Of a DNA stretch of 64,000 nt, positions 2,641-52,590 are shown one piece after another. The notes beneath the pieces are model-generated. The model was not told where the DNA came from and searched no databases. It was given only the letters and a program-made list of their open reading frames with translations. Numbering within the stretch: the stretch's first letter is position 1; the number at the start of each line of letters is the position of its first letter. The position numbers and the translations under genes were made by a program. Origin of the DNA: an uncultured bacterium (lineage in GTDB: Bacteria > Patescibacteriota > Patescibacteriia > UBA1558 > GWA2-36-10); assembly GCA_903855135.1 (NCBI GenBank), contig CAINYB010000006.1, positions 29,631-93,630 on the forward strand, written 5' to 3'.

Positions 2641-2642
2641 AT

Positions 2643-3821
2643 TTAAACAATAACTATTTTTTTATCTTGATAAACAGTTTCTTCTACAAACTTATTTACT
2701 ATTATTTGAAATTGATCAAATTCATTTTTAAATTTTTCTCTGCCTTCTGGAAATGATAAATTTAATTCTTTCATTTTTCTTAATACACTAAAAAATTCTG
2801 TTTTAATGTCTACTTTTTTTAAAAATTCTACCATTTTTGGAAATTTTGTTTCTAAATTATCTAAATCTGCCATACTTAAATTTGACCAATCGTTTTTAAG
2901 TTGTTTCCCTTCTTTATTTAGCGCAATATGGAATTCTTCCCAATCTTTATTAATTTCTTTCAAAACTATCTCTTGTCCTCTTCTGTCAGCTGGTAAAAAT
3001 TTTTGTAAAAAATCTTCGACAGTCATAAAACCAAAACGAACTTTATACAAAAAGTCTCCAGTTTCTAATAATTTTTTTAAACGATTATGATTAATCTGCC
3101 CATTTTGATCAATAAATTGTAGCCAAGTTGATTGACTATGATGGGTAAATGCTTTATCCGTGATTTGAAAACCTAATCTTTTAGCGACTGGCGTGTCCAT
3201 CAGCCAAGATGTTCCGGTGATAAATTTTACTTTTGGGTATTTATCTATAATTTCTTCCGCTAATTTACCAAACCATATGTGTAAATTCTCTGGATTTAAT
3301 TCTGTTTCTGCTTTTTTAAAAAATTCTTCAACGTGTATCTCTAAACATTCGTCTGATTTTTTAATACCATATTCTTCCAAATTCGTTTCTCTGTTATCAC
3401 TAATATTATGTCTAATGGGACCTATGCTACGCTCTTGATTATTACTAATTGGCTTATCTTTCTTTTTAAGTTCTTTAAGAAAGTTTTTTTTACTTAAAAC
3501 TAGCTGAAAAATTTGTGTATGCCAATCTTCTTGATGATCATGATGTATTTGATCTATATTTACTAAAATTGGCTGTAAAAATTCTTGCCAAGCATCTTCA
3601 TTTGCCCCCTCTGTTTGATTATACTCATTACTTAGGTCAGAAATAATAGTTGTGTATTGGTCTAGAATTTGTGTAAATTTAATCTCTGGATTTGTAAGTA
3701 CTTCTTGAGAAAATTTTTGACCAGCAAAATATAACTGAATTTCTGATAATTTTTCATACAAAAGCCTCTCGTGTTCTTGAGGGTCTTCGGCATTTATTCT
3801 TGTTTCAAAACTATTTTCCAT
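2643..3821 (-). CDS. Hypothetical acidic protein. Start is probably Met at MENSFETR (3821), which overlaps the secA stop by 11 nt; the track start at 3893 runs deep into secA.
   Basis: Long uninterrupted ORF, no recognisable motif; start re-assigned to avoid an 83-nt overlap with secA. Confidence 0.4.
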   Translation of the reverse strand: MENSFETRINAEDPQEHERLLYEKLSEIQLYFAGQKFSQEVLTNPEIKFTQILDQYTTIISDLSNEYNQTEGANEDAWQEFLQPILVNIDQIHHDHQEDWHTQIFQLVLSKKNFLKELKKKDKPISNNQERSIGPIRHNISDNRETNLEEYGIKKSDECLEIHVEEFFKKAETELNPENLHIWFGKLAEEIIDKYPKVKFITGTSWLMDTPVAKRLGFQITDKAFTHHSQSTWLQFIDQNGQINHNRLKKLLETGDFLYKVRFGFMTVEDFLQKFLPADRRGQEIVLKEINKDWEEFHIALNKEGKQLKNDWSNLSMADLDNLETKFPKMVEFLKKVDIKTEFFSVLRKMKELNLSFPEGREKFKNEFDQFQIIVNKFVEETVYQDKKIVIV

Positions 3822-8888: not shown

Positions 8889-8951
8889 AGATCTAAGCCA
8901 CTTATAGTTCCACACCCGCGTCAGCGGGTGTGATCTAAATGGCGTATTAAT

Positions 8952-12785: not shown

Positions 12786-14516
12786 TTAAAATTTTATTAC
12801 TTCTCCTGGCTGAATAATATTTTGCTCTTCTTCGGCTTGATCTTGGCGAAGAATCTCTGGCTTAGCCTTTAGAGCTTCAGCTAAAGAAACAAACTCTTCT
12901 TTTTTATCATCTCTATCATAGTTCGGCACTATTTTTATACTAGAAGGTGGTGGAATTTTACCAGACTTAGCTAAATCTAAACAATTTTTGCAATAAACCG
13001 CTTTGCTTGGATCTGGATCAAAATTAATCTCTGCTTCTGAACCACAAAAAGAACAGTTTATTTTATGTTTAATATTTTTTATACTTTTCTTTGATCCGTG
13101 TTCATCACGGCTTAGTTTTTCTTGTTTTTTTCTATCGCCTGCACGTCTATTCTCTACTTTTTTAGCAGACTGTGTCCCACCAGAAGGCGTGATAGCAGCA
13201 GAAGAACTCTCTTTTTTCTCACTTGTTTTTTCGTCTTTATTTTCACTCCAGCGCATAATCTTTTCTTCTATTTCTTCTCTGGGACTAGCATAACGTTCTC
13301 GTGAGACCCTAATCACTTTATCTCTAACTTCTTTATCACTTGGTTTGATATCTATCGGCGGTAAAGTAGTGGCCGAGAAGGCTTCAGAAGCTACGCCGTC
13401 GATCATGAGTTTTAAATAAATCTGATATTTTGGTAAATTGACTAAATTTTCTTGCGTGAATTGTGGAAAAAACTCTTTTTCTAAAGCTTCGGCATCTACC
13501 GCACCAACTCTAAAAGAAACTATCGTGCCCACATTACCAAAAATAGCAGCTTGAACTTTTTCATCTACCTGCTCAATGTATTGGTGGGCAATTGTTAAGT
13601 CTAGACGATATTTTCTAGCTTCTGATAAAATATTAGCAAATGATTCTGTGGCAAAGTTTTGAAACTCATCGACATAAAGAAAAAAATCTTTACGTTCAGT
13701 TTCTGGAATATTCACTCGACTCATAGCCGCGAGCTGGATCTTAGTAATCATCATCGCCCCCAATAAAGCTGAATTATCTTCACCGACTCTACCTTTAGCT
13801 AAGTTTAATAACAAAATTTTCTGATTATCCATCACTTCCCTCATAGTAAAAGAAGATTTTACTTGGCCTAAAATATTTCTGATCAAAGCTGAAGACAAGA
13901 ATCTGCCAACCTTATTTTGAATCGGAGCGATAGCCTCACTTTGAAATCTATCTGGATATTTAGCATATTCCTCTACCCAAAAAGCTTTGACCACTGGATC
14001 AGATAATTTATCTACTACTTTATTACGAAAATTTTTGTCCACCAACATCCTCATGATGCCAAGCAAAGTAGAACCCGGATACTCCAGTAAAGCCGAAATA
14101 GCATGGTGCAAAACATATTCCAAACGAGGACCCCAAGAATCAGCCCAAATCTTTTTGAAAACACCGATCAAACCGGAAACTACCAAATGTCTTTCTGACT
14201 CGTCGACACTTTCTAACACATTAAAAGCAATGGGGAAATCTAAATCTGAAGGATTAAAATAAATCACATCATTGATTCTATTTGCCGGAATAAAATCAAC
14301 GACTTTTTCTACTAAATCGCCATGTGGATCAATCACGCAGACGCCGTGTCCAGCATGAATATCTTGGATGATCATATTTTCCTGCAAAACTGATTTACCC
14401 ATACCAGTTTTACCAATGATGTACATATGTCGACGACGATCATCGGTTTTGATACCAAACTTTACTTCTGAATTACGAAAGTTTGTTTTACCAAAAAAGT
14501 TAATATTTTGATTCAT
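12786..14516 (-). CDS. TrwB/VirD4/HerA-type P-loop ATPase domain protein (split form) with C-terminal CxxC-x17-CxxC zinc ribbon
   Basis: RRRHMYIIGKTGMGKS Walker A with upstream His; VCVIDPHGD; Walker B FFLYVDEFQNF; AHQ motif; tail CSFCGSEAEINFDPDPSKAVYCKNC. Paralog of the C-terminal half of 25146..27593. Confidence 0.65.
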   Translation of the reverse strand: MNQNINFFGKTNFRNSEVKFGIKTDDRRRHMYIIGKTGMGKSVLQENMIIQDIHAGHGVCVIDPHGDLVEKVVDFIPANRINDVIYFNPSDLDFPIAFNVLESVDESERHLVVSGLIGVFKKIWADSWGPRLEYVLHHAISALLEYPGSTLLGIMRMLVDKNFRNKVVDKLSDPVVKAFWVEEYAKYPDRFQSEAIAPIQNKVGRFLSSALIRNILGQVKSSFTMREVMDNQKILLLNLAKGRVGEDNSALLGAMMITKIQLAAMSRVNIPETERKDFFLYVDEFQNFATESFANILSEARKYRLDLTIAHQYIEQVDEKVQAAIFGNVGTIVSFRVGAVDAEALEKEFFPQFTQENLVNLPKYQIYLKLMIDGVASEAFSATTLPPIDIKPSDKEVRDKVIRVSRERYASPREEIEEKIMRWSENKDEKTSEKKESSSAAITPSGGTQSAKKVENRRAGDRKKQEKLSRDEHGSKKSIKNIKHKINCSFCGSEAEINFDPDPSKAVYCKNCLDLAKSGKIPPPSSIKIVPNYDRDDKKEEFVSLAEALKAKPEILRQDQAEEEQNIIQPGEVIKF

Positions 14517-14521
14517 TTTAT

Positions 14522-16021
14522 TTATTCGATTGGTAAATTAGATGGTGCCTCAGCTTTTGTGCTAGCTAATCTAGCTGGCTCTTTGGTGCTTTTAGCTTTT
14601 GCAAATTTATCTTCAAAATAATTATTATCTATATCCACATTAAAAGCTGGTTTTTTTAATTGCGCCATTAAAGCTTCTTTTTCTGACGAAACATTATCGC
14701 TAAAACCAGCAATCGGTAAAGAGCTTGGAGCTTCAGATTTTTTAACTTCCGTACGATGCAAAAGCGGCGTGCGTACTTCCATACCAGGGAAATGCCATAA
14801 ACTAGCTAGCTCTTCAATATTTAAAATAAAAGATTTGTAGCCCATTGCACCGCTACGACTCTTGCAAGCTCTGATGATATTTTCTCGACGACGATTATTA
14901 CGATATTTAGTAAACCAATAGTTAGTTGAAGTTTTAGTTTTAGGATCTGGTTTAAAACTATTTAAATCTAAGGTAGAAAATTGTTTAATAGCTCCAAAGA
15001 CAGAAGATATCACTCTGGGTGGAGAAAAATCTTCTTTAGGGGAGATATAAGCCAAACGAATTTTACACTCGAAACCTATCTTACTAGCCTTATTATTAAT
15101 CGCTTCTAAAATATTTTTTTCGCCTGGCGTCAAATGCAACATCATGCTTGGCATGTCTTCTTTTTTCTTTTCTTTTGATTCTTTCCAAAGAGGATAGACA
15201 AACTCACCTAAATTATCAAGCGTATTCATAAAAACATCCACTGCCTGATTACCTTTTGAGGCTGGTTTTGGCGCTGCTTTCTTACCGGCTATTTTATAAG
15301 CCATTTTTTCCGAATTTGCTAGCCATTCTACGCCAGTTGGTTTGACCATGATTTGAAACCAAACTTGTTCACCAACATGAATTTTACTCATGGTTTCTAG
15401 CAAAGCTGCTAAAGGATCTTTATACTCACCAGAAACCTTATCTTCAAAAGCTGGGTAAGTACGAATCGGTAAAGCATCTGATTTTACCGGTACTATTTCT
15501 GTGCCCCAGACATTATAGTTATCATCCGGAAATTTGGTTGGCGCCCAAGTCGTATAATCCTCTACTTCAGTGATTTCGGCATCTGGGTATTGGGAATAAA
15601 TCGCACTTTCTACCACATCCCTATGTTGGGTAGGAGTACGCACCAAAAATTGCACATAACCGTCAATACTCACAATTTCAAAAGAAAAGGCAAGTTGAAA
15701 TTGCCCTTTAACATACATATCAACATTATTCAAGTTAGCATGAGCACCGGAAACTGTCGAAAATAAACCCTCAACCGCTTTAGGTGTTTGTTCATGGTCT
15801 TTTGGTATATCTACCGCTAATAAAGTAAATTTTATGCCCGAAAACCATTTGTCTTGTTTAAGCATTAGCCAAACTTGATAGCCTTGAGTAATAAAAAGAT
15901 AAGCAAAAAGTATCCAAGCACCATGGATAAAAATATACCACATCGCTGCTTCAGGACCATTAGAAACCGCATTCAATAAATCAGTTAAATCAATAACTAA
16001 ATTTAAAAACTCTATTTGCAT
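14522..16021 (-). CDS. Membrane-anchored N-domain partner of the split ATPase; homologous to the N-terminal half of 25146..27593
   Basis: TM helix followed by segments alignable to the fused paralog (..FSFEIVSIDGYVQFLV..YPDAEITEVEDY.. versus ..FSLEIVATSTEINFYA..YPKVYFEEISDY..) and the shared linker LNIEELASLWHFPG / LNAEEMISMVHLPL. Confidence 0.5.
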   Translation of the reverse strand: MQIEFLNLVIDLTDLLNAVSNGPEAAMWYIFIHGAWILFAYLFITQGYQVWLMLKQDKWFSGIKFTLLAVDIPKDHEQTPKAVEGLFSTVSGAHANLNNVDMYVKGQFQLAFSFEIVSIDGYVQFLVRTPTQHRDVVESAIYSQYPDAEITEVEDYTTWAPTKFPDDNYNVWGTEIVPVKSDALPIRTYPAFEDKVSGEYKDPLAALLETMSKIHVGEQVWFQIMVKPTGVEWLANSEKMAYKIAGKKAAPKPASKGNQAVDVFMNTLDNLGEFVYPLWKESKEKKKEDMPSMMLHLTPGEKNILEAINNKASKIGFECKIRLAYISPKEDFSPPRVISSVFGAIKQFSTLDLNSFKPDPKTKTSTNYWFTKYRNNRRRENIIRACKSRSGAMGYKSFILNIEELASLWHFPGMEVRTPLLHRTEVKKSEAPSSLPIAGFSDNVSSEKEALMAQLKKPAFNVDIDNNYFEDKFAKAKSTKEPARLASTKAEAPSNLPIE

Positions 16022-16079
16022 AAAATTTGTTACACTTTGACATAATTATAACCTATTCCGCCAAAATATAAAAGTTTTC

Positions 16080-16250
16080 ACCCCTCCCATCCTCCCCTTC
16101 GTAAGGGGAGGAGTTATAATCAAGATGTTTTGTTGTTTTCTCCCCCTTGCGAAGGGGGAGATACAGAGGGGGTCAAAAAACACCCCAGGATAAACCCGGG
16201 GCGTTCTGATAATAAATTCACTTGAGTTTTCTCCGCCGTAGGCGGAGAAA
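16080..16250 (-). repeat. Tandem cluster of 3-4 GC-rich palindromic units between the sigma-like gene and the split ATPase locus
   Basis: cctcccctt-cgt-aaggggagg; tctccccctt-gcg-aagggggaga; cccc(a)gg..ccgggg; ttctccgcc-gta-ggcggagaa. All in a 170-nt intergenic gap; the spurious 69-aa track ORF 16046..16255 is made of these. Confidence 0.6.
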
Positions 16251-16258
16251 ATCAAATC

Positions 16259-17425: not shown

Positions 17426-17486
17426 ATACCCCCTCTGCCGCTGAAGCGTCTTCTCCCCCTAAATTAGGGGGAGATATAGAGGGGGT
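17426..17486 (-). repeat. Nested GC palindrome: outer stem aataccccctct/agagggggtatt enclosing hairpin tctcccccta-aatt-agggggaga
   Basis: 12-bp outer stem enclosing a 9-bp inner hairpin; the inner unit recurs at 22864-22886 and the outer 5' arm recurs reverse-complemented at 22913-22930. Confidence 0.55.
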
Positions 17487-17510
17487 ATTTCTTTAATTTA
17501 TTGGCTAATA

Positions 17511-21676: not shown

Positions 21677-21750
21677 TCGGGGATCGTCTAATGGTAGGAC
21701 AACAGGTTCTGGTCCTGTTTATTGGGGTTCGAATCCCTATCCCCGAGCCA
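21677..21750 (+). tRNA. tRNA-Gln (anticodon CUG), 74 nt with encoded CCA
   Basis: Hand-folded cloverleaf: 7-bp acceptor tcgggga/tccccga with U1-A72 and G73 (bacterial Gln identity elements), D-loop with GG, anticodon stem acagg/cctgt, loop ttCTGgt, T-loop ttcgaat, 3' CCA. The reverse orientation fails because there is no U33. Confidence 0.8.
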
Positions 21751-21820
21751 CTCGACTCCTCCTCGGCTACGCTCGGAGTCGCTCGCGGTCTGTCGACCAA
21801 ATTCATATAAAATCAATGAT

Positions 21821-21838
21821 CCCCGGCGGATGCCGGGG
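21821..21838. terminator. Bidirectional GC hairpin ccccggcg-ga-tgccgggg with flanking T/A runs; exact copy at 22896-22913
   Basis: Follows the tRNA on the plus strand (then ttttatt) and follows the stop of minus-strand gene 21853..22782. Confidence 0.6.
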
Positions 21839-21852
21839 ATTTTATTATTTCT

Positions 21853-22782
21853 TTATTGTTTCAAAATAGGTTTATACAACTCTGGATCTATGGTTCTACT
21901 AAAACAAGTTTTTTCAGCTTTATGATCCCAATTTTGTTGGAAATCTACCATATACATATCATTGTTTATCCTATCATTTTGAGCATTACTTATGGTCTTG
22001 AAGTCAGCACAAAGCTCAAAAGCTAAATCACCAGTGACTTTGTATTCATAGATAGCTTTAGTGTCTGGGTCAGTTGGTACTTTAAAACCAGAAATACTAT
22101 CCTCTAGAGCGCTTAATTGGTTTGGTAAGGTTTGTTTTTGTTGCCAATAATTTAAGACTTCATTTTGAATAGTCTGTAAATTTTGTATTCTTTGTTCATC
22201 AAAACGATAAGCTCTTTGTTTAGTTGGTGTACCGATAATAAAAAATCCTAAAGCCACAGAAGCAATCACCAAAATCGCAGTCACCCAAGCAAAAATCTGA
22301 TTTAATTTTTTATTGGCTTCCTCTCTTTTCAAATCCCAAAGATAATAAGAGAATACTAAACCAGCTACTAACAAGACCACTAGGACTTTAAAGAAAAATT
22401 TAATACTCAAATCACCATCTAAAAAGCGATAAACAAACATGATCAAATCAATAATAATTGTAACAGCAGAAACAAAAAGGGTTAAATAAAGTAACCACTT
22501 TCTGATTTTGATTTCTCTTTTTTCTTTGTTAAGCGAGACATCTTTAGCTAAGATCCAAGCAGTTAACAAATAAAACGGCCAAGCAATAATCAACATCGAG
22601 GTAAATACCCTGACAGCTTGGGCAATACTGTTATAATAAAAAGTCAAAGCATCTGGATACAGGAAGTCAATGTATTGGATATAAAGATTGATAAAACTCA
22701 CGATACTTAAATAAAAAGTCACGATGCCAAATAAATGTAAAAATACATCTTTGGGCGTGCTTTTTAGTGTAGTTTGCTCCAT
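21853..22782 (-). CDS. Polytopic membrane protein, unknown function
   Basis: 309 aa, about 6 TM helices in N-terminal half, soluble C-terminal domain; no motif recognised. Confidence 0.4.
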   Translation of the reverse strand: MEQTTLKSTPKDVFLHLFGIVTFYLSIVSFINLYIQYIDFLYPDALTFYYNSIAQAVRVFTSMLIIAWPFYLLTAWILAKDVSLNKEKREIKIRKWLLYLTLFVSAVTIIIDLIMFVYRFLDGDLSIKFFFKVLVVLLVAGLVFSYYLWDLKREEANKKLNQIFAWVTAILVIASVALGFFIIGTPTKQRAYRFDEQRIQNLQTIQNEVLNYWQQKQTLPNQLSALEDSISGFKVPTDPDTKAIYEYKVTGDLAFELCADFKTISNAQNDRINNDMYMVDFQQNWDHKAEKTCFSRTIDPELYKPILKQ

Positions 22783-22814: not shown

Positions 22815-22930
22815 TACCCCCTCCTCTTCGAGCCTTGAGGCTCTTCTGAGCCGAAACGGTCGGTCTCCCCCTAAATTGGGGGGAGAAGGCGCGTTCCCCG
22901 GCGGATGCCGGGGAAGCGGCAGAAGGGGTA
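22815..22930 (-). repeat. Composite mosaic of GC-rich palindromic units (BIME-like) between dnaX and the membrane protein gene
   Basis: Contains gagcc-ttga-ggctc, tctcccccta-aatt-ggggggaga (copy of 17452-17474), ccccggcggatgccgggg (copy of 21821-21838) and an outer arm gcggcagaaggggta that is the reverse complement of taccccctctgccgc at 17428-17442. Confidence 0.6.
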
Positions 22931-25145: not shown

Positions 25146-27593
25146 TTAAAAACTAAAACGTTTCTCAATTTCCGCTTCTACACCAGCTCTGTCTTTACCG
25201 TATTTGAGACTAGATAATTCTTTCAAAGCTTGAGCTAATTCAAAGTTTCCTTTTTCCGCCATAATCGGATTAAAGTTAAAAGCCGGAGCAGCCGTGTTAT
25301 CGATCAATAATCTGACGTAACAAGTATATTTGGGCATATTGACCAAATCATATTCCGAAACCACTGGCGCCATTTGTTTAGCAATGATCTCTGCATCTTC
25401 GACACCGATACGATAAGAAATGATGGTACCAACATTACCAAAGATAGCATCTCGTACACGCGTGTCACCATTTTTGACTAGCTGGGCTAAAAACTGATGG
25501 GCCAAGATAAGGTCTAGACGATATTTTCTGGCTTCCGATAAAATAATAGCGATACTATCAGTAATAAAGTTTTGAAACTCATCAATGTATAAATAAAAAT
25601 CTTTGCGTTCATTTTCTGGGATATTCACTCGACTCATAGCCGCAAATAATAGTTTACCGATGACAATCATACCAAGCAAGCTACTATTTATTTCTCCGAT
25701 TTTACCTTTGGATAGATTTAATAAAATTATTTTATTCGTATCCATGGCTTCCCGAAAATTAAAAGCACTTTTACTTTGCGCAATTATCGGACGGATCAAA
25801 TCATTAGCAATAAATGGCGTCAATTTACTAGTGATATAAGGCACCATGTTGGCCAATGATGCTTCACCACCAGCTTTTTGCGCTTCTTTTTCCCAAAAGT
25901 CTTTGACGAAATGATTTTTTACTGTCAGTAATTTTTGTTTTCTAAAATCTTCATCAGCCAAAACTTTAGGGATTTCGAGTAGCGTTGCACCAGAATCTTT
26001 ATCATCCATGATGAGTAACATCGCATTACGCATATATTGCTCAAACATCGGACCACCGGTGGCTTTCAAATCATAGAGTTTGTCAAAGATCGCGATCATT
26101 TCATTGATCACAAAAGTTTTTTGCTCATCAGTGTCATATTCTAGCATGTTCATGCCTAATGGCCGGCTAGAATTTGCTGGATCAAACAAAATCACATCTC
26201 CTGCTCTTTCTTTCGGAATATGTGCTAAAACTGACTCGATGCTATCACCATGTGGATCAATCACGCAGACACCTTTGCCGGCTTTGATATCCTGGATAAT
26301 CAAACTTTCTTGTAAAACTGATTTACCCACACCAGTCTGACCGATGATGTACATATGTCGACGACGATCAGCATCTTTGATACGCACGAGAGTCTCTGCA
26401 CCTCTAAAAGAGCTCTTGCCTAAAACTAAGCCTTCTGTAGCCATATTTTGTGGTGGCGCTGCTTTACTGGCCTCTAGCCAGGCAATGCGTGGTGTTTCAG
26501 TCGTAGGCAAAGGCAAATGAACCATTGAGATCATTTCTTCTGCATTGAGCAAAATACGAATATTAGTATCATAATGACGATAAATAAAATCTTTGATTAA
26601 TTTGTCTGGATTTTTTGGTAATAAAGCTTTAAAAACATTACCAAATTCATAAATATTATATTGGGCATAGCTATTTAAGATGTCAGCCAAAATAGCATTT
26701 GACCTTTCTTTACTTGGGCTTGAACAAATCACTCTGATATTGACATCTAGTCCGGGCTTAGAGCTTTTTTCTTGCAACATCTTGCCAGCTTCTTGTTCCA
26801 TGGCTGAAGTCTGATGTTTATCTTTATCTCCTAAAACACCTTGATCATTATCTTTTTTGGTAGAAAAAAAACTTAATAAAAAACTAAAAGCTTTACCTAA
26901 AAAATTTAAAACACCGGTTCCATAACTTTCAGTAATCGCTGCTTTAAAAGTCATGCCTTTGGCCATATTAGCTACTATTTTGTGAGCACGATCATGCCAT
27001 TTTTTTGGTGCAGATTTAAAGACATATTGCACTGCAGCTGATTCATGTTCATTTAGCTTACTTAAAGCATTGGTGATACTTTCCAAAGGATCATTGTCAA
27101 AACTTTTGTAAGTTTTGACTGGTAAAGCGATATCACTCTGTATTTTTAAAACACCAGCTTTTATCACACTATTTGCTTCAAAAATATTATAATCAGATAT
27201 TTCTTCAAAATATACTTTTGGATAAACAGTCTGTATTTGTTGAACAAAAAAGGTTTTATATTTTGGTGGCATCGCAGCGTAAAAATTTATCTCTGTAGAA
27301 GTAGCAACTATTTCTAAAGAAAAAACTTCACTTAGTTTAAACCAAGATTTTTCTGCTTTTAAACCAGCTAAAGAATAAAAAAAATTTTCTACTTGTCCCA
27401 AACTAGAGATGATAAAATCTTTTGTTAGCTGTTCTCTTTCACTTTTGGTGTAGCGCGGTATCTTAATCAAAATAATGTCTAAAGATAAATCTTTATTTAT
27501 TCTTTTTTTATACCAAACAAATAAAAACAAGGCAATTAAACAAAAAACAACCAATATAGCTACTAGTAAAATTGTCTGAATATCAATAGTCAT
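25146..27593 (-). CDS. Membrane-anchored TrwB/VirD4/HerA-type P-loop ATPase, fused form (N-domain + ATPase), 815 aa
   Basis: N-terminal TM helix; RRRHMYIIGQTGVGKS; VCVIDPHGD; Walker B FYLYIDEFQNF; AHQ. Its N- and C-halves align respectively with ORFs 14522..16021 and 12786..14516. Confidence 0.7.
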   Translation of the reverse strand: MTIDIQTILLVAILVVFCLIALFLFVWYKKRINKDLSLDIILIKIPRYTKSEREQLTKDFIISSLGQVENFFYSLAGLKAEKSWFKLSEVFSLEIVATSTEINFYAAMPPKYKTFFVQQIQTVYPKVYFEEISDYNIFEANSVIKAGVLKIQSDIALPVKTYKSFDNDPLESITNALSKLNEHESAAVQYVFKSAPKKWHDRAHKIVANMAKGMTFKAAITESYGTGVLNFLGKAFSFLLSFFSTKKDNDQGVLGDKDKHQTSAMEQEAGKMLQEKSSKPGLDVNIRVICSSPSKERSNAILADILNSYAQYNIYEFGNVFKALLPKNPDKLIKDFIYRHYDTNIRILLNAEEMISMVHLPLPTTETPRIAWLEASKAAPPQNMATEGLVLGKSSFRGAETLVRIKDADRRRHMYIIGQTGVGKSVLQESLIIQDIKAGKGVCVIDPHGDSIESVLAHIPKERAGDVILFDPANSSRPLGMNMLEYDTDEQKTFVINEMIAIFDKLYDLKATGGPMFEQYMRNAMLLIMDDKDSGATLLEIPKVLADEDFRKQKLLTVKNHFVKDFWEKEAQKAGGEASLANMVPYITSKLTPFIANDLIRPIIAQSKSAFNFREAMDTNKIILLNLSKGKIGEINSSLLGMIVIGKLLFAAMSRVNIPENERKDFYLYIDEFQNFITDSIAIILSEARKYRLDLILAHQFLAQLVKNGDTRVRDAIFGNVGTIISYRIGVEDAEIIAKQMAPVVSEYDLVNMPKYTCYVRLLIDNTAAPAFNFNPIMAEKGNFELAQALKELSSLKYGKDRAGVEAEIEKRFSF

Positions 27594-39150: not shown

Positions 39151-39633
39151 AAGGCTTAAATTAGCCTCATAAGCCGAATTCTGTTCTCCAGCAAGCTGGA
39201 GTGATGATCATCTATCTAGGACTATGATTGCCCATAGCCTCAAGCAAGCTACCCGATCCCGCTTAGCGGGACCCTATTTGCTCTTGCACCGAATAGAGTT
39301 TAGCTCTTTTAGCTTGTCACCAAGCTAACGGGTCAGCTCATTATCTGACCATTTCACCCTTATCCTTCGATTCGGCCTTGCGGTCTCACTCAGGAAGGAA
39401 TACTCTCTGTTCAACTTGTCCTGACCACTTAGTCGCCCAAATGGCCGGTTGTCGTTAACAACTATCCTCCATTTAAAAATGGAAAATGGTGTTCGGACTT
39501 TATCCTCCCTCCTTCGCTGTCGCTACGCGCCAGCTACGGACGGGCAGGCCCCGCTAAATTGTAGGGCTTGCCGTACGAAGCTCAAACGCAGTGAGAGCGA
39601 AGGACGGCGATCATCTCGGCTAATTTAAACCTT
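39151..39633 (-). ncRNA. rnpB: RNase P RNA (bacterial type), not in ORF track
   Basis: Minus-strand transcript contains GGAGGAUAAAGUCCGAACACC (CR-I/P4 5' strand), AAGGGUGAAAUGGUCAGAUAAUGAGCUGACC (CR-II/P10.1-P12 pattern) and ACAGAAUUCGGCUUAU (CR-IV/P4 3' strand). P4 shows compensatory GG to AA and CC to UU changes relative to E. coli. P1 helix GGUUUAAAUUAGCC/GGCUAAUUUAAGCC closes the molecule. Lies in a 750-nt ORF-free gap of elevated GC. Confidence 0.8.
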
Positions 39634-40955: not shown

Positions 40956-41969
40956 CTATTTAGCAGATAAAATACTACGTTTATAAGACTCTAGATTTTC
41001 TAAAGCAATACCAGTACCACGAGCTACACAGAGCAAAGCGTCATCAGCGGTGTAGGCTGGCACACCAGTAGCTTGGGATAAAAGTTTATCCATATTACGC
41101 AAAAGCGCTGTACCACCGGACAAAACCATGCCTTTGTCCATAATATCAGCTGACAACTCTGGTGGTGTCTGATATAGCACCGATTTTACGGCCGAAATCA
41201 AGCCCTGGAGCTCGTTTTGTAAGGCTTCGGTCACATCATCTGAACTGACTGTAATCGTGCGTGGTAGGCCAGTGATCATATCACGGCCTTTGACATCCAT
41301 AAATAATTTTTCTTCTTTTGGTAAAAATTGAGCTGAACCGATTCTTATTTTGACTGCTTCTGCACTGCTTTCACCGATAGCGAGATTATACTTCTTCTTA
41401 ATATACTCACCAATAGCTGTATCATATTTATTACCACCGATTTTCACTGAAGTGTTAGCCACGATACCGCCCAAAGAAATAACCGCAATTTCTGAAGTGC
41501 CACCACCCATATCGACGATCATATGACCAGAAGCCGAACCGATCGGAATATCAGCCCCGATAGCCGCCGCAATTGGTTCACGAATAATATAAGCTGCTTT
41601 AGCACCAGCATTCAAAGTGGCGTCAATAACAGCTCTGCGCTCAGTAGAAGTAATACCAGCTGGTACGGCGATCATCACTTCAGGACGAAATAGTTTCATA
41701 CCACCAACCGCTTTGTTGATAAAATACCTAAGCATGCTTTCGGTAGTTTTATAGTCAGCGATCACACCATTTTTTAGAGGTCGAGAAGCAATGATTGAAT
41801 CTGGCGTACGACCGATCATATCTTTAGCTTCATCACCAACGGCTAAAACTTTTTTATCAAAAACCGAAATCGCCACCACACTTGGCTCATTAATAACAAT
41901 ACCTCGTTTAGGAATATAAACTAAGGTATAAGTCGTGCCCAAATCAATCCCGATTTTCTTAATAAACAT
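40956..41969 (-). CDS. mreB: Rod shape-determining protein MreB (copy 1)
   Basis: IGIDLGTTYTLVY, actin-fold phosphate motifs, DMGGGTSEIAVISLGG. Confidence 0.85.
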   Translation of the reverse strand: MFIKKIGIDLGTTYTLVYIPKRGIVINEPSVVAISVFDKKVLAVGDEAKDMIGRTPDSIIASRPLKNGVIADYKTTESMLRYFINKAVGGMKLFRPEVMIAVPAGITSTERRAVIDATLNAGAKAAYIIREPIAAAIGADIPIGSASGHMIVDMGGGTSEIAVISLGGIVANTSVKIGGNKYDTAIGEYIKKKYNLAIGESSAEAVKIRIGSAQFLPKEEKLFMDVKGRDMITGLPRTITVSSDDVTEALQNELQGLISAVKSVLYQTPPELSADIMDKGMVLSGGTALLRNMDKLLSQATGVPAYTADDALLCVARGTGIALENLESYKRSILSAK

Positions 41970-45680: not shown

Positions 45681-46733
45681 TTAATTAAGACCTAAATCTT
45701 TAGTTGAAGGCAATAAAATTTCTCTTAAATTATCCAAATCAGCTAATACTTTACCAGTGCCACGTACCACGGCAGTCAAAGGATCGTCAGCGACATGGAC
45801 TGGCATTTTTGTTTCTTGAGCAATCATCACATCAAGACCTCTTAATAAGGCTCCACCACCAGTCAAATACAAACCTTTTTCGTATAAATCAGACACTAAT
45901 TCTGGTGGAGTACTTTCAATGGTAGTTTTGATGTTGTCAACGATTAATTTAATCGGTTTAGCGATCGCTTCTCTGATATTGGCATCGGTGATACGAATTT
46001 CTTTTGGCAAACCAGTCAACAAATCACGACCGCGCATCGTGGTCTCCATTGGTTTGTCTAGCAGTAAGACAGAAGCAATCTGAATCTTGATTTTTTCAGC
46101 GGTCCGTTCACCTAATAAAATATTAAATTTATCACGAGCGTATTGGGTGATAGCTTCGTTTAGTTTATCGCCAGCTAATTTCAAAGATTTCCAAGAAACT
46201 ACTCCACCCAAAGAAATCACAGCAATTTCTGTGGTGCCACCGCCCATATCTACCACCATACTGGCTGTAGCCTCTAAAATAGGCAAACCAGCCCCGATAG
46301 CAGCAGCAATCGGTTCTTCTATCAAAAGTACCTCTGAAGCACCCGCACCCATGACAGCGTCCTCCACCGCCTTACGCTCCACTTCAGTGATGTCCAAAGG
46401 TATAGCGATCATCACTCTGGGACGTGGCATAAAAGTCATGCTTTCTTTATGTACTTTATTGATAAAATGTTTAATCATTTTTTCACTGACTTCAAAATCA
46501 GAAATAACTCCATCAACCAAAGGTCTGACGACATTGATATGTAATGGAGTTTTACCAAGCATAACTTTAGCATCATCACCAACGGCTACTATTTTATCCG
46601 TTCTAGTATTGATAGCCACCACACTCGGCTCATTGATAACAATACCTTGATCTTTGACATACACCAAAGTATTGGCCGTACCAAGGTCAATACCCATATC
46701 TTTAGAAAATTGTCCTAAAAATTTCTTAAACAT
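45681..46733 (-). CDS. mreB: Rod shape-determining protein MreB (copy 2)
   Basis: GIDLGTANTLVYV, DMGGGTTEIAVISLGG; distinct paralog of 40956..41969. Confidence 0.85.
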   Translation of the reverse strand: MFKKFLGQFSKDMGIDLGTANTLVYVKDQGIVINEPSVVAINTRTDKIVAVGDDAKVMLGKTPLHINVVRPLVDGVISDFEVSEKMIKHFINKVHKESMTFMPRPRVMIAIPLDITEVERKAVEDAVMGAGASEVLLIEEPIAAAIGAGLPILEATASMVVDMGGGTTEIAVISLGGVVSWKSLKLAGDKLNEAITQYARDKFNILLGERTAEKIKIQIASVLLLDKPMETTMRGRDLLTGLPKEIRITDANIREAIAKPIKLIVDNIKTTIESTPPELVSDLYEKGLYLTGGGALLRGLDVMIAQETKMPVHVADDPLTAVVRGTGKVLADLDNLREILLPSTKDLGLN

Positions 46734-48247: not shown

Positions 48248-48267
48248 TTCCCCGCGTCCGCGGGGAA
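48248..48267 (-). terminator. GC hairpin ttccccgcg-tc-cgcggggaa
   Basis: Perfect 9-bp stem after the proS stop. Confidence 0.55.
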
Positions 48268-48289
48268 TAACTCTAGAATACGTTTTTTA

Positions 48290-50279: not shown

Positions 50280-50365
50280 TATTTAATTATCTTGTTACTA
50301 AGTCCACTTTTGACCTCTGGTCCCCGCGTACGCGGGGAAGGCGGGGGCAATATCAACTTAAAGCT

Positions 50366-52548: not shown

Positions 52549-52590
52549 TGACTAAAATATAACATTTTCAGAACTAAAAATCAACCAGCT

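Follow-up and report, generated by a model that had tools for sequence, protein, structure and literature searches.

A degenerate nested copy of a dispersed palindromic repeat family next to dnaX in a Patescibacteria genome

The GC-rich block between dnaX and a DUF5671 membrane-protein gene, here called T3, is a real but disrupted and degenerate nested copy of a dispersed palindromic repeat family. More likely than not it is an old copy, and the family to which it belongs consists of short non-coding palindromic repeats dispersed in low-GC Patescibacteria. The closest known class is that of the G/C-rich triplex motif repeats (BoxC / PIT / TM), which an earlier model-made reading of the letters alone (the sequence-only reading) had left unnamed.

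The window, that is, the whole stretch of 64,000 nt that was analysed, has a GC content of about 35%, and its minus strand holds nearly all of the genes. Nomurabacteria, Komeilibacteria and Parcubacteria were the named sources of the homologues found for DnaX and for a sigma-like protein in a protein homologue search, and such homologues assign the window to the Patescibacteria (candidate phyla radiation, Parcubacteria-type). On the minus strand, 11 nt separate the dnaX stop codon (22942) from the beginning of T3, and its end lies 32 nt ahead of the DUF5671 gene, which begins at 22782. The 159-nt spacer that holds it is identical across five independent assemblies from different samples, so T3 is no assembly artefact. 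The sequence-only reading had seen at least four stem-loops in this 116-nt block, and both RNA and DNA folding gave four hairpins within one outer stem. The RNA folds of the two strands reach -67.6 and -70.8 kcal/mol (z about -5 to -6) and the DNA fold has a z of about -5.3, the outer stem closing the four hairpins on both strands. The parts of the block are as follows:

22815-22930, minus strand: T3, the flagged block, consisting of outer arm, P2, P3, CCG, a 35-nt insert (P4 and P5) and outer arm
22920-22930, minus strand: 5' outer arm, TACCCCTTCTG, with a single C>T change against the family consensus TACCCCCTCTG
22890-22918, minus strand: slot hairpin P2, CGC-TTCCCCGGCATCCGCCGGGGAA-CGCG, whose 20-nt core matches the hairpin at 21820-21839 exactly
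22864-22886, no strand assigned: core hairpin P3, TCTCCCCC-N7-GGGGGAGA, one arm pyrimidine and the other purine, the family's conserved centre
22851-22863, minus strand: small hairpin P4, CCGACCGTTTCGG, the first half of the 35-nt insert
22824-22850, minus strand: hairpin P5, CTCAGAAGAGCCTCAAGGCTCGAAGAG, the second half of the 35-nt insert
22815-22825, minus strand: 3' outer arm, AGGAGGGGGTA, an imperfect form of the mirror block AGAGGGGGTA

Both slots of T3 are occupied and its outer arms carry mismatches. The insert formed by P4 and P5 sits between P3 and the mirror block, and a search for a second copy of it found none anywhere in the data searched.

Three repeats connect T3 with other places in the window, and each of them gave 0 matches in 100 dinucleotide shuffles. 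The first is a hairpin already noticed at 21821-21838, which proved to be an exact 20-mer, TCCCCGGCGGATGCCGGGGA, with exactly two sites (21820-21839 and 22895-22914). The second, TCTCCCCCTAAATTRGGGGGAGA, occurs at 17452-17474 and at 22864-22886 with one difference, just as had been reported. In the third, the 3' arm had been described as the reverse complement of a sequence at 17428-17442; here the repeat itself stood, with GCGGCAGAAGGGGTA (22916-22930) the reverse complement of TACCCCCTCTGCCGC, but not an exact one, as there is one mismatch, and the partner lies one base further left, at 17427-17441. T3 is the largest of three related elements, and the other two, together with the free-standing hairpin, are:

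17427-17487, plus strand: T2, compact and 61 nt long, whose class II triplex motif (17452-17486) is intact
within 17427-17487, plus strand: part of T2, TCTCCCCCTAAATTAGGGGGAGATATAGAGGGGG
16080-16173, plus strand: T1, CCCCTCC-CAT-CCTCCCC..GGGGAGG, a 27-nt spacer and TCTCCCCC..GGGGGAGA-TAC-AGAGGGGG
21820-21839, no strand assigned: the P2 hairpin again, standing free between the tRNA-Gln and DUF5671 genes, which converge here, and scored as bidirectional terminator-like

The minus strand of T3 aligns end to end with the plus strand of T2, the two being members of one family in opposite orientations. This kinship, and T1 altogether, had escaped the sequence-only reading. T2 lies in the stretch from the secF stop codon to the promoter of the sigma-like gene, and T1 is a two-hairpin copy with one triplex motif on each strand, a layout that is also found on phage contigs and in other phyla. 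The three elements and an element in a relative (L009) share a common frame: TACCCCCTCT, a hairpin slot, TCTCCCCC-N7-GGGGGAGA, about 3 nt or a second slot, and AGAGGGGGTA. The list of GC islands in the window held no further C5/G5 elements. A 69-aa open reading frame at 16046-16255 on the minus strand (…PPLTKGRMGGV…) is a spurious translation over T1 and the adjoining hairpins.

The family extends well beyond the window. In a hairpin-only scan, the core hairpin with its TAAWTTA loop was found in 83 metagenome stretches, nearly all of them on low-GC contigs and a few GC-rich (GC about 0.68), with six separate sites on one contig of 860 kb. The sequence-only reading had proposed a module search as a check on dispersal, and the census came out in favour of it. 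The loop is conserved although it is structurally dispensable, and the linkers and flanks are conserved as well. A consensus built from 43 normalised copies from other genomes reads AAAA-TACCCCC(T/A)CTG-[TGTCC-N4-GGACA]-TCTCCCCC-TAAWTTA-GGGGGAGA-[3-5 nt]-AGAGGGGGTA-TTTT. The outer inverted repeat, TACCCCCTCT and AGAGGGGGTA, is often preceded by an A-tract and trailed by a T-tract. Two slots flank the core hairpin, and normally one of them is a linker of 3-5 nt and the other a small variable hairpin, the arm changes of which are compensatory (GTCC/GGAC, GCCC/GGGC, GTCT/AGAC, TCGC/GCGA). This hairpin is sometimes swapped for others of 20-46 nt, including the CCGGCATCCGCCGG module of the window, which stands alone in L007 and acts as slot filler in L189/L223/L254 and in L240. 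Either slot can be filled, and both are filled in 6 of 52 copies, as in T3. Among 68 unselected copies a mirror block lies at most 6 nt from the hairpin in 56, and a direct-repeat block in one. Furthermore, 11 of 66 copies, and those of L176 and L236 (the same sequence), apparently lie inside long open reading frames with flanks that are not AT-rich.

Taken together, these comparisons indicate that the family is a genuine set of dispersed, modular palindromic repeats of common descent that is used in both orientations, and the modular reuse proposed by the sequence-only reading is borne out by the opposed T2 and T3 and by the 83 stretches. RNAalifold found no covariation in the fixed stems, with a MAFFT alignment whose 3' side was mis-registered. 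A search of Rfam 15 over 15.9-23.1 kb, at gathering thresholds and at E<=10, gave nothing relevant: T1 drew only chance-level matches to microRNA models (E above 1, far below gathering scores), and T2 and T3 drew none. The sequence-only reading was not aware of such repeats having been described for such genomes, and a search of the accessible library gave no paper tying palindromic or triplex repeats of this kind to candidate phyla radiation genomes and a full-text search on the arm sequences returned unrelated papers only.

The same census bears on the possibility that the repeats are convergent GC-clamp terminators that arose independently at a few sites, without common descent. Some GC-rich hairpin stands in almost every intergenic region of the window, and orthologous gene ends of relatives carry unrelated hairpins, as such convergence would lead one to expect. 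However, the exact identities of 20-23 nt extend to loop bases without any structural role, shuffled sequence gave 0 matches, and the 83 stretches agree in the TAAWTTA loop as well as in linkers and flanks. This explanation, which the sequence-only reading had held out as its own alternative, is excluded by that conservation of loop, linker and flank sequence across the census, and the chance that it is right is vanishingly small.

Simple hairpin families occur in the window in their own right. The GTCCCCGCGTACGCGGGGAAG GC hairpin forms an exact 21-nt repeat at 783-803 and 50320-50340, 49.5 kb apart, with a variant at 48248-48268. CCGCC-N4-GGCGG hairpins lie at 2257, 16230, 50260, 59054 and 60848, and ACACCCCCG..CGGGGGTGT hairpins at 8910, 11250 and 60310. 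Hairpins of these families turn up in nearly every intergenic region. Other features of the window include about 1.1 kb at 2641-3810 that lacks a convincing gene and has three plus-strand open reading frames of 81-94 aa with no Pfam matches, in contrast to the dense minus-strand coding elsewhere. There are also paralogues of a DUF8128/TrwB-like ATPase at 12786-16021 and 25146-27593 (77-84% DNA identity over stretches), two mreB genes (40956-41969 and 45681-46733) and an RNase P RNA at 39157-39557 on the minus strand.

Relatives with 90-95% protein identity were compared at orthologous spacers. The spacer between dnaX and the DUF5671 gene is 33 nt long and empty in L008 and L010, has 50 nt and a lone small hairpin, TCCGGCATCCGCCGGA, in L007, and has 118 nt and a shorter intact element in L009. 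The empty site consists of TAAATTTTGAAATT joined directly to AATCAATC, and the filled site of TAAAAAATATAAAA, the element and CTAAATAAATAATCAATC. Besides the element, the filled and empty alleles differ in an AT-rich flank of about 10 nt. Between secF and the sigma-like gene, relatives have a canonical intrinsic terminator, AAAAGCCCGCTAATAGCGGGTTTTTT, and the window has T2 instead; the spacer is of equal length in both and the flanks and the promoter are conserved, which points to replacement of a segment. In the spacer between the sigma-like gene and the DUF8128 gene, only a terminator is found in relatives, and a hairpin, a terminator and T1 in the window. The syntenic 21-kb stretches of L010 and L014 gave zero triplex motifs, as compared to three in the window. 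Conversely, copies in L217 and L238 sit where the corresponding spacers of the window (42 nt and 10 nt) are empty, and operon-internal spacers of relatives also hold copies. As read from these alignments, gain, loss and replacement of elements at orthologous sites are shown, along with the nesting of hairpins into slots.

Other differences between the relatives surround these sites. In the region at window 21677-21852, tRNA-Gln is convergent with the DUF5671 gene, as it also is in L014, whereas in L007, L010 and L011 it is co-directional with the genes, and the tRNA-Gln/DUF5671 region of relatives has extra open reading frames (75 and 170 aa) and an M23 peptidase, none of them in the window. 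The 60 nt downstream of the tRNA-Gln (21751-21810) are GC-rich. Directly after the family copy of L217, the segment at 2830-3200 opens with a promoter-like TTGACA-17-TAATAT, continues with some 330 nt of non-coding, GC-richer sequence and closes with a strong intrinsic terminator. It has no Rfam match, may be a candidate for an undescribed small RNA gene, and has no counterpart in the window, where the orthologous spacer (52549-52590) measures 42 nt.

Presence and absence at orthologous sites, several copies per genome, terminal inverted repeats in the family (TACCCCCTCT...AGAGGGGGTA, imperfect in T3) and a TA at both ends of most copies could be taken as signs of a MITE, moved in trans by a transposase such as one of the IS630/Tc1 type, which duplicates TA. 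The terminal TA belongs to the palindrome itself, however, and is therefore no evidence of duplication; the comparison of filled with empty sites gave no clean target-site duplication, the alleles differ by more than the element plus TA, and the segment between secF and the sigma-like gene was replaced by one of equal length. Moreover, a Pfam scan found no transposase or RAYT among the 57 genes of the window (64 kb of the source genome), and there was no transposase in the annotated syntenic loci of relatives. The same core motif is spread across many phyla and phage contigs of GC 0.30 to 0.70, for which a single transposase is hard to invoke. The MITE-like reading offered earlier is thus unproven, and we regard it as improbable.

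The likeness to REP/BIME elements, which the sequence-only reading had also suggested, fares worse. Such elements are mosaics of REP hairpins moved by a RAYT, an IS200/IS605-like Y1 transposase, and the mosaic of GC-rich hairpins, the extragenic 3' positions and the recurrence of simple hairpin families between window genes (for example, the exact 21-mer at 783 and 50320) are in keeping with them. However, by direct reading none of the modules and none of the 43 family copies has a GTAG or CGTC head, alternating REP pairs with fixed linkers are absent, and the suggested check for a RAYT gave no Y1 transposase match in the window. The homopyrimidine/homopurine hairpin with its mirror block is a signature of the BoxC type and not of REP. 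That the family is a REP/BIME system is accordingly very improbable.

That signature was examined using an ITxF-like finder, with a triplex motif defined as a pyrimidine arm, a loop of 3-9 nt, a homopurine arm, a loop of 1-6 nt and a mirror purine copy, with at least 7-8 triads and at most one mismatch. The finder gave three G/C-rich motifs in the window, at 16139-16173 (plus), 17452-17486 (plus) and 16080-16111 (minus), and 0 in 100 shuffles; the motif of L009 lies at 3287-3321. AGAGGGGG is the mirror image, and not the complement, of the purine arm GGGGGAGA, and would correspond exactly to the third strand of a purine-motif triple helix. With its hairpin, linker and purine mirror block, the family has the sequence make-up that defines a class II intrastrand triplex motif, and it shares further traits of the class in being intergenic, without strand bias, present in several copies per genome and variable in its loci among close relatives. 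No motif was reported by the finder in T3 itself, where the motif is broken because the 35-nt insert makes the second loop 38 nt long; the third blocks of T3, AGGAGGGGG and AGAAGGGG, are imperfect, and T3 is homologous to the intact copies of L009 and L189. The E. coli TM_ECO consensus, CCCTCNCCC-N3-6-GGGNGAGGG-N3-GGGNGAGGG, had 0 matches in the window. Judged by primary sequence, the family is a member of the BoxC/PIT/TM structural class but a separate sequence family from TM_ECO.

Matches to the hairpin in a hairpin-only scan of viral contigs also carried AGAGGGGG 1-3 nt downstream. The pattern of hairpin plus AGAGGGGG was present in 27 viral stretches and, among species-representative genomes, in at least 120 stretches that span many phyla, including several lineages of the candidate phyla radiation, and a GC range of 0.30 to 0.70; it was mostly intergenic and without orientation bias among the matches listed. 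The IMG/VR viral contigs L020, L029, L030, L047, L051 and others (GC 0.43-0.70) have both the motif and the two-hairpin layout of T1, and single IMG/VR contigs have 2-3 motif copies each.

In all composite copies the mirror block can also pair with the other outer arm by Watson-Crick rules. Since this is the pairing that appears in the predicted folds, the element can do without a triplex. At one position of the outer stem, an uncompensated T>A or A>T is found in 17 of 52 copies and a compensated change in none; these variant copies may be one subfamily, and C variants also occur. In the two-hairpin copies, a noisy automated test had the mirror rule do better than outer-stem pairing in 10 cases, equally well in 13 and worse in 6.

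Another possibility is that the family acts primarily at the RNA level, as a three-way-junction 'super-terminator' or 3'-end protector by which candidate phyla radiation genomes replace simple intrinsic terminators, with T3 as the working 3' structure of dnaX. Copies lie a median of 9 nt past stop codons, and they are flanked by tandem genes in 18 cases, by convergent ones in 9 and by divergent ones in only one. Of 26 gene-proximal copies, 14 run into a U-rich tail, T2 takes the place of a canonical terminator with the promoter of the next gene directly after it, both strands fold very stably, and the arm changes of the slot hairpin are compensatory. Against this, the orientation of copies relative to the upstream gene is about even (9:6), and the copies at the dnaX site (window, L009 and L189) have no sense-strand U-tail. 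In T3 the sense-strand tail is UACUAAAUAAAU, with no U-tract after the stem, and a terminator scan flagged no more than the 21820 hairpin and a stem at T2's edge. The link between dnaX and the DUF5671 gene in relatives is 33 nt of unstructured sequence, which suggests that no terminator is needed there. Similarly, copies occur in operon-internal spacers and apparently also inside open reading frames, and the A.A or T.T mismatches in the outer stem of a third of the copies go uncompensated throughout. Terminator activity is also absent from E. coli BoxC (PMC4666352). A role as RNA-level terminator or protector plausibly fits part of the family and T3 poorly; that the family is primarily such a device, with T3 as the working structure of dnaX, is doubtful. 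Ribozyme, riboswitch, attC and Shine-Dalgarno-sequestering readings were dropped because the copies have no conserved unpaired core nucleotides, are independent of orientation and keep no fixed distance to start codons.

On the preferred reading of T3 as an old, disrupted family copy, the comparison shows the following history. An element is present in the dnaX-DUF5671 spacer of the window lineage and of L009, and not in other relatives. In the window lineage both of its slots have been filled with extra GC hairpins, namely the locally duplicated CCGGCATCCGCCGG terminator hairpin and the unique 35-nt double hairpin, and its outer arms have gained mismatches. With the slots filled and the arms mismatched, the triplex motif is no longer intact. 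The family as a whole may be selfish or neutral DNA without genes, and its spread or exchange probably relies on template switching driven by structure, or on illegitimate recombination of folded single strands, at terminator-like spots just past stop codons. It would be tolerated there because a very stable fold could do the work of a terminator or of a 3'-end protector, and copies with a U-tail, possibly including T2, could substitute for a terminator. The genes dnaX and DUF5671, with T3 between them, likely form an operon; given this position and the missing sense-strand U-tail, T3 is less likely to be a true terminator than a passenger that stabilises or attenuates the transcript.

A wider proposal is that the TCTCCCCC..GGGGGAGA-NNN-AGAGGGGG unit is pan-bacterial mobile DNA without genes, which spreads by means of its own single-strand fold (hairpin or triplex), hijacks replication or repair instead of depending on a transposase, and may have been domesticated as a modular, hairpin-accepting terminator cassette in the transposase-poor genomes of the candidate phyla radiation. 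This is a speculative suggestion that we think unlikely to hold.

Gene-less repeats such as BoxC have been without a mechanism of spread since the 1990s. In the streamlined genomes of ultra-small Patescibacteria, a repeat of this kind is gained, lost, swapped with terminators and loaded with hairpins between lineages of 90-95% protein identity. As such, these genomes offer a clean natural system for studying how structured repeats move and whether they act as terminators. The asymmetric arms are also suited to asking whether a triplex-type mirror block works, as the self-mirror arms of E. coli cannot reveal a mirror copy. In metagenome-assembled genomes, the elements seed spurious open reading frames and false 'hypothetical proteins' (such as the one at 16046-16255) and mark spacers that are prone to rearrangement.

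Several known systems resemble the family. Bidirectional intrinsic terminators share with it an A-tract, a GC-rich stem and a T-tract just past stop codons, and T2 occupies the place of one. They differ from it in that the family is multi-branched, has conserved loop and linker sequence and forms a dispersed homologous set, and T3 has no sense-strand U-tail. The REP/BIME elements of enterobacteria and pseudomonads, with their RAYT, are likewise small GC-rich extragenic palindromes that form mosaics and occur in both orientations and in many copies. The family differs from these in having neither the GTAG/CGTC head nor a RAYT in 64 kb, and its mosaics are hairpins nested in one element, whereas REPs alternate with fixed linkers. 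The small dispersed repeats of Nostoc, reportedly described by Elhai and colleagues in 2008, and nested MITEs are said to be similar in being very small, intergenic, embedded in one another and polymorphic in their insertion between relatives, and to differ in unrelated sequences and host phylum.

The closest counterpart is BoxC of E. coli, which was found anew twice, first under the name of PIT elements and later as TM_ECO, an intrastrand triplex motif (Hoyne et al. 2000; Holder et al. 2015, PMC4666352). Both have a pyrimidine arm, a loop, a purine arm, a loop of about 3 nt and a second purine block that could serve as a reverse-Hoogsteen third strand. The second loop of BoxC has 3 nt, TTA or CCG (PMC4666352), and that of the family also usually has 3 nt, including CCG and TTA. 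BoxC is always intergenic, favours neither strand and is found in inverted pairs too; strains differ unusually often at its loci, and no mobility gene or transposase is known for it (PMC4666352); intergenic position, unbiased strands, some inverted pairs, hypervariable loci and the want of a known associated transposase are common to the family. As a single strand, BoxC forms a triplex in vitro, which was not detected in vivo, and it has neither promoter nor terminator activity (PMC4666352). Differences are equally clear. The arms of the family are TCTCCCCC/GGGGGAGA and those of TM_ECO CCCTCNCCC/GGGNGAGGG, and the former are asymmetric whereas the E. coli arms are self-mirror, so that the second purine block of the family can be seen to be a mirror copy rather than a direct one. 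The family unit also includes an outer Watson-Crick stem and a slot for a variable hairpin, and the third blocks point outward in its two-hairpin copies but inward in the E. coli pair 1+2. The family hugs stop codons, often with terminator-like A/T tracts, whereas TM_ECO keeps no particular distance from genes (PMC4666352). The family motif is also found on viral contigs, whereas E. coli BoxC is not phage-associated according to Holder et al. (PMC4666352). T3 is a lineage-specific new addition to the known palindromic repeats of the BoxC/PIT/TM type.
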